From: a virus
IMG/VR virus record: IMGVR_UViG_3300045988_127389
Span: 58,908 to 122,907 of that record
Length of the DNA: 64,000 nt
Reading direction: 5' to 3' (one strand)
Shown here: piece by piece, positions 29,729 through 30,571 of the stretch
Layout: each line of letters starts with the position of its first letter
Numbering within the stretch: position 1 is the first letter of the stretch
Notes under the pieces: generated by a model
What the model was told of the DNA's origin: nothing
What the model saw: the letters and a program-made list of their open reading frames with translations, nothing else
The model's database searches: none
Made by a program: the position numbers and the translations under genes

Positions 29729-30571
29729 TTATTCACCGACATAAATCAGCTTGTCGATGTAGTCACGACCATCACCAGAGAACTTAGGAATCTCATGGTC
29801 AATAATCCATCCACCTTCATCTCGCACGCAACAAGAGCCACGCTTCAATTCTGTAGCAAGATTATTCCAGTTGATACCCTTCTCGTTCATCAACATATCC
29901 TGAATCTCGGAAGTATTCTTACCATTCAGAACGGTATGCGAAAAATTGGCCTGACCAACCGCCTGAATACTGTTTCGAGAAGCGTCAAACTGTCTCCATA
30001 AGAAGCAATTGCACACCTCTTCCTTCGGGATATTAAAGGCGCGAGAATCGAAACACAAACCTTTTTCTTTACACTTTGCCAACGTAGCAGAATAAGCGTC
30101 AATTTCAAACTTATTCACACCAGAGGACAATGCCATCTTAGTGAGGGTTCTATTGGCATTACGTTCAAAGCACTTATTAAATGCCAACGTAGCCATTGAT
30201 GCACTAAGACTTACTAATTTGTTTAGATTATAACCAAACCAAGCATCGGTTTCCAGCTTATCATAATCAACAAGACACAAAGTAATCTCGTCAGACTGCG
30301 TATAACCAATTACACAACCCTGAATGTTTTCACACAGATACTTCATTGTATCCTGCATTGTTGAAGTGAAAACTACGTCAAAAGGCTTCTTCAGACTCTT
30401 TGTGAAAGTATGCCCAGCACGAGAGTCGATTCGGATAATGACAGGCATACGCCGTGTCAAATAAACACGATACGCACCCTCATAATAAGTTTTCATTCTG
30501 TCATCAAGTGTCATCACGGTCAAATACGCTCCTTCCTCTGTAATATGCTCCGCCTTTATAGAATGGGTCAA
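29729..30571 (-). CDS. Thg1-like protein (tRNA-His guanylyltransferase family, 3'-5' nucleotidyltransferase)
   Basis: VIIRIDSRAGHTF...KPFD...GYTQSDEITL aligns with the Thg1/TLP core (VVRLDGRNFHRF...AYGQSDEYSF). The gene lies directly upstream of the tRNA array. Confidence 0.7.
   Translation of the reverse strand: MTHSIKAEHITEEGAYLTVMTLDDRMKTYYEGAYRVYLTRRMPVIIRIDSRAGHTFTKSLKKPFDVVFTSTMQDTMKYLCENIQGCVIGYTQSDEITLCLVDYDKLETDAWFGYNLNKLVSLSASMATLAFNKCFERNANRTLTKMALSSGVNKFEIDAYSATLAKCKEKGLCFDSRAFNIPKEEVCNCFLWRQFDASRNSIQAVGQANFSHTVLNGKNTSEIQDMLMNEKGINWNNLATELKRGSCCVRDEGGWIIDHEIPKFSGDGRDYIDKLIYVGE

Follow-up and report, generated by a model that had tools for sequence, protein, structure and literature searches.

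The 64,000-nucleotide (nt) stretch of viral DNA analyzed here (positions 58,908 to 122,907 of IMG/VR record IMGVR_UViG_3300045988_127389; hereafter, the window) carries a gene for a Thg1-like protein (TLP), which lies within an array of tRNA genes and close to several genes with predicted roles in RNA repair (Table 1). A preliminary description of this DNA had regarded the gene as phage-encoded, and this origin is borne out by the window as a whole, which encodes a PolIII-alpha-type DNA polymerase, a primase-helicase, an SSB, an exonuclease, methylases, and homing endonucleases. An equivalent locus layout is present in two related contigs, namely L007, a 115-kb IMG/VR viral contig carrying a TLP with 98% protein identity, and L002, a 111-kb ENA contig with a TLP that is 92% identical. 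No near-identical phage was found in GenBank at the DNA level, and the identity of this TLP to any GenBank phage copy does not exceed 53%. The nearest isolate relatives of the polymerase are Clostridioides and Bacillus siphophages, and the closest cellular TLPs occur in gut Clostridia (Lachnospiraceae, Ruminococcus, and Oscillospiraceae), in which relatives at 45–58% identity are common. The polymerase relatives, the sigma-70 consensus promoters, and the Clostridia TLPs thus suggest that the virus, a phage of about 115 kb, probably infects gut Bacillota (Clostridia).

The TLP Gene and Its Operon

The open reading frame (ORF) at 29729..30571 on the minus strand contains the motifs IRIDSRAGHTF at residues 46–56 and GYTQSDE at residues 89–95 when read as a protein of 280 amino acids (aa), the length given in the preliminary description. 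This length, however, is an artifact of an upstream in-frame TTG at 30571. Because the N-termini of close homologues (260–281 aa) all coincide with residue 19 or 20 of the 280-aa reading, the start codon is taken to be either the GTG at 30517 or the ATG at 30514, and the protein to be 261–262 aa long. Its membership in the Thg1 family, proposed earlier from motifs, is confirmed by a match to Pfam Thg1 (PF04446; E = 1.9e-24, 86.5 bits vs. a cutoff of 29.2) that covers profile positions 2–130 of 130. The Thg1C profile gives a weak match (9e-4), and strong matches were obtained to PHROG 4717, named "tRNA-His guanylyltransferase" (1.8e-81), and to the sequence of Bacillus thuringiensis TLP (BtTLP) in PDB entries 4KGK/4KGM (2.1e-60).

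The gene is preceded by two small ORFs, orf86 and orf97, together with which it constitutes a predicted three-gene operon (orf86-orf97-TLP) with its own consensus promoter. The start of the TLP gene overlaps the stop of orf97 by 11–14 nt, and the two are therefore probably translationally coupled. A second promoter, which matches the consensus at every position and is conserved in L002, begins 28 nt past the TLP stop codon, between the TLP gene and the tRNA-Trp gene, and is predicted to drive tRNA-Trp and the remainder of the array; the interval from the TLP gene to this tRNA promoter contains no predicted terminator. The earlier observation that the gene abuts a tRNA array thus holds, with tRNA-Trp(CCA) lying 91 nt past the stop codon and at least 11 further tRNAs extending down to 25987. 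As tRNA-Arg(CCT) lies upstream and the remaining tRNAs lie downstream, the TLP gene is in fact nested inside the array, rather than merely adjoining it.

Active Site, Fold, and Subtype

Residue roles were taken from the structural and functional study of BtTLP (Hyde et al., 2013; PMC3701042) and mapped onto a HMMER alignment, with the phage residues numbered on the 280-aa ORF. The metal-site carboxylates, on which the preliminary description had made the family assignment depend, are all present: D30, D75, and E76 of BtTLP correspond to D49, D94, and E95 of the phage protein (D29, D76, and E77 in human THG1) and are invariant in 25 homologues. The residues of the activation step are likewise identical (BtTLP K43, S74, and N154; phage K62, S93, and N200), as are three arginines, including those of the nucleotidyl-transfer step (BtTLP R28, R131, and R147; phage R47, R177, and R193), and the glutamate E12 of BtTLP (phage E31), which positions the activation and transfer residues (Hyde et al., 2013). 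These functional residues are invariant or nearly so in alignments of 11 and 25 sequences. The protein looks active and, by homology, would be a catalytically competent enzyme.

An AlphaFold2 model built from the 25-sequence alignment has a mean predicted local distance difference test (pLDDT) score of 88.1 and a predicted template modeling (TM) score (pTM) of 0.88. When this model was compared with the PDB using Foldseek, the top 32 matches (E < 1e-3) all proved to be Thg1 or TLP structures, which share a polymerase-like palm fold; human THG1 and Bacillus TLP, named in the preliminary description as references for such a comparison, are among them. The best match is BtTLP (4kgm; target-normalized TM score, 0.86), followed by Methanosarcina TLP and then Candida, human, and yeast Thg1, and the first match outside the family has an E-value of about 1e-2. 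Sequence E-values follow a similar course, from 2e-60 for BtTLP to 5e-8 for the archaeal TLP of M. acetivorans, 3e-5 for Candida Thg1, and 6e-3 for human THG1. Some 37 aa of the phage protein (ORF residues ~136–172) have no counterpart in BtTLP, being inserted between BtTLP residues ~116 and 127. This insert is modeled with high confidence as a helical hairpin, consisting of one extended helix and a second helix, and is common to the whole clade, including the TLP of Fusobacterium phage FNU3.

The HINNLYN segment of eukaryotic Thg1, a marker of tRNA-His-specific enzymes, is absent from the phage protein, which has DASRNSIQAVGQ where Candida Thg1 has DCHINNLYNTTF and BtTLP has DASKNSISMVAQ; the region is also given as WRQFDASRNSIQAVGQANF in the phage protein, WRQVDCHINNLYNTTFWNL in Candida Thg1, and WRQQDASKNSISMVAQANF in BtTLP. 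The sequence comparisons and the fold ranking both place the protein with the bacterial-type TLPs rather than with the tRNA-His Thg1 enzymes of eukaryotes.

Purifying selection on the gene is strong: the ratio of nonsynonymous to synonymous substitution rates (dN/dS) against the L007 copy is 0.046, and against the L002 copy dN is 0.046 with dS saturated. The abundance of close relatives in gut Clostridia assemblies might suggest that the gene is a decaying or functionless passenger acquired from a Clostridia host. However, this selection, the conservation of all catalytic residues, the gene's own consensus promoter, and the retention of synteny in relatives whose synonymous sites are saturated make such a reading extremely improbable.

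Distribution and Genetic Linkage of Phage TLPs

The preliminary description considered it unusual to find such an enzyme directly upstream of a phage tRNA cluster. This view does not hold, as Thg1-like genes occur in 155 GenBank phage records (tblastn), have a PHROG family of their own, and are present on at least 560 IMG/VR contigs. The GenBank records include Bacillus phages, Prevotella Lak megaphages, and phages of Caulobacter, Mycobacterium, Erwinia, Aeromonas, Vibrio, Burkholderia, and Fusobacterium, and most of these homologues are already annotated as tRNA-His guanylyltransferase. Metagenomic protein homologues number at least 8000 at E ≤ 1e-10, and a genome scan confirmed 575 stretches with TLP homologues. 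In bacteria, gene linkage of Thg1 with polynucleotide kinase (Pnk) and with RNA ligase has been reported (Anantharaman et al., 2010; PMC2904730), and phage Thg1 as an RNA-repair or anti-defense enzyme was discussed both there and more recently (Iyer et al., 2021; PMC7824862). Both the presence of the gene in phages and the repair hypothesis of the preliminary description are, therefore, already in the literature.

Linkage was assessed in 86 TLP loci with flanks of up to 10 kb. Within this distance, homologues of Pnk were found in 30 loci, of RlaP in 17, and of the Ro-like protein described below in 6, and an RNA ligase homologue was found in 13, a count for which the flank ends too early in many loci. 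The locus in the window shows the same linkage with Pnk and RNA ligase that is known from bacterial Thg1 homologues (Anantharaman et al., 2010). As for tRNAs, 17 of the 80 closest IMG/VR loci have one or more within 10 kb of the TLP gene. Pooling 160 loci and grouping them at 80% protein identity gave 88 lineages, of which 10 have a tRNA within 1 kb of the TLP gene, 21 within 3 kb, and 30 within 6 kb. In the loci L029, L032, L035, L036, and L037, the array ends 50–400 nt before the TLP start, and the order of tRNAs is unlike that in the window.

The Predicted RNA-Repair Neighborhood

Six genes lying upstream of the TLP gene, on the same strand and within 15 kb, encode a Ro-like protein, a PIN-PhoH protein, a kinase-phosphohydrolase fusion (Pnk-HD), an RlaP-family nucleotidyltransferase, an RNA ligase, and PTH2 (Table 1). 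The distances from the TLP gene are 2 kb for the Ro-like gene, 6.3 kb for Pnk-HD, and 12 kb for the RNA ligase gene. This clustering suggests a tRNA/RNA repair island, and phage RNA-repair systems described previously comprise the same set of functions, Thg1 among them (Iyer et al., 2021). In addition to the matches listed in Table 1, Pnk-HD matches the kinase region of bacterial Pnkp in NCBIfam (2e-17), and the RNA ligase matches TIGR02306 at 2e-22, which is under the trusted cutoff.

The name "Ro-like" stems from mycobacteriophage annotation, and a PDB sequence search with the protein yielded no relative. Homologues of this DUF2828 + vWA protein are found in 710 GenBank phage records, and many of the carriers, such as FelixO1, Listeria A511-like phages, and KVP40-like vibriophages, are rich in tRNAs. 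In three related TLP phages (L036, L056, and L077), the Ro-like gene is itself part of a tRNA array close to the TLP gene; in L036, several long tRNA-like matches and a weak YrlA match come after it.

Other neighbors were noted as well. The divergent PurA-like gene is always paired with the adjacent phrog_2971 gene, in 14 TLP loci; its identification as PurZ (Z-genome) is not supported, since it scores 32 bits against a PurZ cutoff of 300. Directly upstream of the tRNA-Arg/TLP operon lies a gene for an SPFH/flotillin-like membrane protein, weaker homologues of which occur near TLP genes in several other phage loci, and in FNU3 a "prohibitin" gene is found two genes after the TLP gene. Near 52 kb in the window, transcription polarity and GC skew switch, with minus-strand genes before this point and small plus-strand ORFs after it.

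Table 1. Features of the TLP locus, with positions numbered from the first nucleotide of the window.
Feature	Positions	Strand	Remarks
tRNA array, remaining part (Arg-TCT, Glu-CTC, Arg-ACG, Leu, Val, Thr x2, Lys, Ile, Ser, Cys)	25987..29455	minus	also holds tRNA-like RNAs, tRNA-Phe remnant, endonuclease ORF
tRNA-Thr(CGU)	26843-26918	minus	
tRNA-Thr(UGU)	26920-27007	minus	88 nt
tRNA-like gene with anticodon-arm insert	27418-27530	minus	
tRNA-like gene with anticodon-arm insert	27708-27830	minus	
PD-(D/E)XK + HTH endonuclease gene	28257-29009	minus	frame split by TAG at 28947-28949
tRNA-Phe remnant	29031-29057	minus	about the first 27 nt only
Acceptor-less tRNA-like RNA	29153-29212	minus	Rfam tRNA 52 bits, model positions 7-64 only
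Second tRNA-like RNA	29296-29365	minus	Rfam 22.9 bits
tRNA-Trp(CCA)	29563..29637	minus	first tRNA downstream of TLP; A1.C72 mismatch, G73, encoded CCA
Sigma-70-type promoter, TTGACA-17-TATAAT with extended TG	29673..29701	minus	12/12 consensus positions; conserved in L002
TLP gene	29729..30517 (GTG) or 29729..30514 (ATG)	minus	261-262 aa
97-aa ORF (orf97)	30504..30797	minus	directly upstream of TLP; no Pfam/PHROG match; kept only in L002, L003, L007
86-aa ORF (orf86)	30805..31065	minus	first gene of the small operon; no Pfam/PHROG match; found only in L007
Sigma-70-type promoter, TTGACA-17-TAGAAT with extended TG	31056..31084	minus	11/12 consensus positions; upstream of orf86-orf97-TLP
tRNA-Arg(CCT)	31104..31179	minus	upstream of TLP operon
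Terminator-like hairpin	31188..31205	minus	after SPFH/flotillin gene, just before tRNA-Arg(CCT)
SPFH/flotillin-like membrane protein	31227-32756	minus	509 aa
DUF2828 + vWA protein ("Ro-like RNA binding protein")	32815..34314	minus	PF11443 2e-49, PF25043 1e-29, PHROG 850 3e-129
PIN-PhoH (PhoH2-like) RNA nuclease/helicase	35608..36813	minus	family matches
Polynucleotide kinase (AAA_33) + HD phosphohydrolase fusion (Pnk-HD)	36863..37774	minus	AAA_33 8e-24, HD 6e-5
Divergent PurA-like (adenylosuccinate-synthetase-like) gene	37781-39142	minus	PurA model 79 bits, far below cutoff
phrog_2971 gene	39159-40121	minus	320 aa
RlaP-family Pol-beta nucleotidyltransferase (RNA-ligase-associated)	41232..42038	minus	PF10127 2e-5, above cutoff; PHROG 388
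ATP-dependent RNA ligase, N-terminal OB fold, DRB0094/Rnl5 type	42688..43809	minus	PF21189, PF09414
PTH2 peptidyl-tRNA hydrolase	44515..44946	minus	PF01981 1e-32
HNH endonuclease gene	57706-58287	plus	

tRNAs and tRNA-Like RNAs of the Array

The name carried by the family in every database would lead one to think that the enzyme adds or restores the 5' guanosine (G-1) opposite C73 of host or phage tRNA-His and thereby keeps this tRNA recognizable to histidyl-tRNA synthetase during infection. Bacterial TLPs are reported to add G-1 opposite C73 (Heinemann et al., 2010, as cited by Hyde et al., 2013), and several related TLP phages encode a tRNA-His with C73. However, of the five related phage loci with a tRNA-His gene, four have G-1 in the genome, opposite C73, so that its addition would be superfluous there. 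In the 64-kb window, ARAGORN, intron-tolerant ARAGORN, and Rfam (at both gathering and E-value thresholds) detected no tRNA-His, and none was found in the arrays of L002 and L007, which are syntenic. Furthermore, the protein belongs with the repair-type TLPs and has no HINNLYN segment. Given the lack of a tRNA-His here and the genomically encoded G-1 in the relatives, a dedicated G-1 function is unlikely at this locus.

In each of the three related phages, the 1:72 pair of the tRNA that follows the TLP gene is mismatched. The window and L007 have A.C at this position, and L002, the tRNA-Trp of which is otherwise very different from the copy in the window, has A.G. In addition, G1.U72 pairs occur in three further tRNAs of the array, namely tRNA-Arg(ACG), tRNA-Arg(TCT), and tRNA-Glu(CTC). 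These pairs, together with the position of the TLP gene within the array and next to the array promoter, might suggest an enzyme dedicated to maturing or editing the unusual tRNAs of the phage itself, with mismatched 5' nucleotides such as A1 of tRNA-Trp being removed and resynthesized against the 3' strand. However, A1 and G73 are normal identity elements of bacterial tRNA-Trp, and the mismatch may simply be tolerated. Non-Watson-Crick 1:72 pairs are found in 16 of 88 tRNAs (14 G.U and 2 mismatches) from 11 non-redundant TLP-adjacent loci, as against approximately 4 of 23 in the tRNA region of phage T5, in which the stretch examined contains no TLP; because the frequencies are similar, they lend no support to editing. 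Moreover, the mismatches at positions 2–3 that typify edited mitochondrial tRNAs are absent, there is no evident candidate for the 5' nuclease, and most TLP loci have no tRNAs nearby. Editing of this kind therefore appears improbable. A stricter version, according to which the TLP would be an obligatory maturation factor for the phage's non-canonical tRNAs (with tRNA-Trp and possibly the tRNA-like RNAs as substrates) rather than a damage-repair enzyme, is in our view very improbable; if it were true, the nesting in the array would reflect co-dependence, and the locus would parallel, in a bacterial virus, the 5' editing of mitochondrial tRNAs.

The array encodes no fewer than four conserved tRNA-like RNAs that cannot be ordinary tRNAs. 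One of them, at 11649–11708 in L002, has intact D, anticodon, and T arms but is acceptor-less and without CCA. Its L002 copy shows a compensatory change in the anticodon stem and a different "anticodon" (ACA vs. UAA), and a long-range pairing, UAGACAC...GUGUCUA, encloses it, with the 3' flank differing between the window and L002. Its identification as a Y RNA of the YrlA type is not supported, as Rfam gave no YrlA match in the window and the fold z-score is only −1.26; the only YrlA match, that in L036, is weak (35 bits vs. a cutoff of 69). A second RNA (about 11487–11570 in L002) combines a T arm and a perfect acceptor stem of 7 bp with an aberrant, AU-rich middle, and its T stem shows compensatory changes between the phages (ACGG/CCGU vs. 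GUGG/CCAC). Furthermore, tRNA-like genes with inserts of 34–49 nt in the anticodon arm, which are too short for group I introns, occur twice in the window as well as in L002 (12294–12410) and L036 (6494–7172). Between the element at 27708 and its L002 counterpart, the acceptor, anticodon, and T stems have changed in a compensatory manner, which indicates that the structure is under selection. Similar elements are annotated in the tRNA region of T5 in GenBank as "tRNA-like stable RNAs with unknown functions."

It is conceivable, in light of these RNAs, that the TLP acts on substrates other than tRNAs, such as tRNA-like stable RNAs, RNAs handled by the Ro-like protein, or other 5'-recessed duplex RNAs. 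TLPs are reported to accept non-tRNA substrates in vitro, and the nearby Ro-like gene, which elsewhere lies inside tRNA arrays close to TLP genes, fits with such a role. The acceptor-less RNA, however, with its missing CCA and unconserved 3' flank, argues against templated rebuilding of an acceptor stem, and we regard non-tRNA substrates as doubtful, with only a small chance of being the principal ones.

Several other peculiarities of the array may be recorded. The tRNA-Phe gene, intact in L002 (11807–11882), is reduced in the window to a remnant that is followed by a PD-(D/E)XK + HTH endonuclease gene, a homologue of which lies in the tRNA array of L056. A split, intron-containing tRNA-Phe was considered and rejected, as the 3' half is absent downstream and Rfam detected no group I intron; rather, the gene looks as if it had been destroyed by a homing-endonuclease-like insertion, and the endonuclease gene is possibly now a pseudogene. 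The tRNA-Thr(UGU), which is one base apart from tRNA-Thr(CGU), has an extra arm of about 15 nt in its variable region, whereas its L002 copy is 74 nt long. Of the 57 long minus-strand ORFs in the window, 37 end in TAA, 19 in TGA, and one in TAG. Recoding of TAG was nevertheless rejected, because reading it as sense merges no genes convincingly apart from the endonuclease ORF. The window has no suppressor tRNA, but a tRNA(CUA) is encoded by the related TLP phages L077 and L086. The related viral contigs L036 (2912–3314) and L056 (5997–6070) hold a tmRNA gene (Rfam 60.7 bits; cutoff, 47), located inside the tRNA array, and a c-di-GMP-I-GGC riboswitch-like element, which scores 55.2 bits, just below the cutoff of 59.

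Proposed Function

The presence of Pnk-HD, RlaP, RNA ligase, PTH2, and Ro-like genes nearby fits the idea, put forward in the preliminary description, of an enzyme for tRNA maturation or repair, and repair is the best reading available. We therefore propose, with a probability of roughly 0.6, that this bacterial-type TLP rebuilds recessed tRNA 5' ends by templated 3'-5' addition, as one arm of a tRNA repair module. By homology with the TLPs of B. thuringiensis, Myxococcus, and Methanosarcina, the enzyme would first activate a 5'-monophosphate RNA end using ATP or GTP. Nucleotides would then be added in the 3'-5' direction, being chosen by Watson-Crick pairing against the 3' strand of the acceptor stem, until the recessed 5' end is filled. 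Within the module, Pnk-HD would heal ends and supply the 5'-phosphate for the TLP, the TLP would restore missing 5' nucleotides on phage and/or host tRNAs, and the RlaP nucleotidyltransferase, RNA ligase, and PTH2 would handle other tRNA lesions. The linkage with Pnk, RNA ligase, RlaP, and tRNA arrays is recurrent; the enzymatic activity, the tRNA substrates, and an anti-defense purpose are what we infer.

Several observations weigh against this proposal. Among the known defenses directed at tRNAs, cleavage falls in the anticodon or D arms, in the acceptor stem on its 3' strand (retron Eco2), or, in the case of Cas12a3, in the CCA tail, and literature searches found no host defense that removes tRNA 5' nucleotides; because no known defense generates 5'-recessed tRNA ends, the lesion that the repair model presupposes is hypothetical. 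These searches also found no experimentally characterized phage TLP. The association of TLP genes with tRNAs, although recurrent and present in several divergent lineages, is seen in a minority of cases: of the 80 closest IMG/VR loci, 63 are free of tRNAs within 10 kb, and no tRNAs lie beside the TLP gene in Fusobacterium phage FNU3 or Bacillus phage Eldridge. Finally, the helical insert of about 37 aa sets the subfamily apart from BtTLP and may bear on the choice of substrate.

Comparison with Known Systems

The phage protein exhibits considerable similarities to BtTLP (4KGK/4KGM; Hyde et al., 2013), with approximately 40–48% identity over aligned blocks, the best fold match, the same carboxylate triad and activation and transfer residues, a similar size, and a stand-alone single-domain architecture. 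There are also differences, in that BtTLP lacks the insert and is encoded on a bacterial chromosome, whereas the phage gene lies in a tRNA array. With eukaryotic Thg1 (human, 3OTB; Candida, 3WBZ), the phage TLP shares the fold and the two-metal active site, but sequence similarity is weak (3e-5 to 6e-3), and the reactions differ as well, Thg1 adding a single non-templated G-1 to tRNA-His and TLPs performing templated repair (Hyde et al., 2013).

Annotated phage TLPs (PHROG 4717) belong to the same family and occur in tailed phages, examples being those of Pseudomonas phage 201phi2-1, Bacillus phages Eldridge, PK-3, and G, Fusobacterium phage FNU3, Caulobacter phiCbK-like phages, and the Lak megaphages, and RNA repair or counter-defense has been proposed for them; the gene in the window differs in being nested in a tRNA array beside an unusually complete set of RNA-repair genes. 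The healing and sealing system of T4 (Pnkp and Rnl1 vs. PrrC) is similar in that phage enzymes restore nuclease-damaged tRNAs, and the window also encodes a Pnk and an RNA ligase. However, T4 ligates a break in the anticodon loop, whereas a TLP polymerizes missing 5'-terminal nucleotides on a template.

In the mitochondria of amoebae (Dictyostelium and Acanthamoeba), TLP-based tRNA 5' editing acts on tRNAs of the same small genome. The phage TLP similarly adjoins a tRNA-Trp with a 1:72 mismatch, but in the phage the mismatch is confined to position 1 and to one tRNA, at a frequency not above that in a TLP-less phage.

The locus leaves existing knowledge unchanged, as the family, its occurrence in phages, and the idea of repair have all been published. 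Bacterial-type TLPs repair truncated tRNAs in vitro. With its predicted promoter-defined operon inside a tRNA array and its accompanying repair genes, the locus lends itself to testing whether 3'-5' polymerization serves phages in the upkeep of tRNAs during infection.

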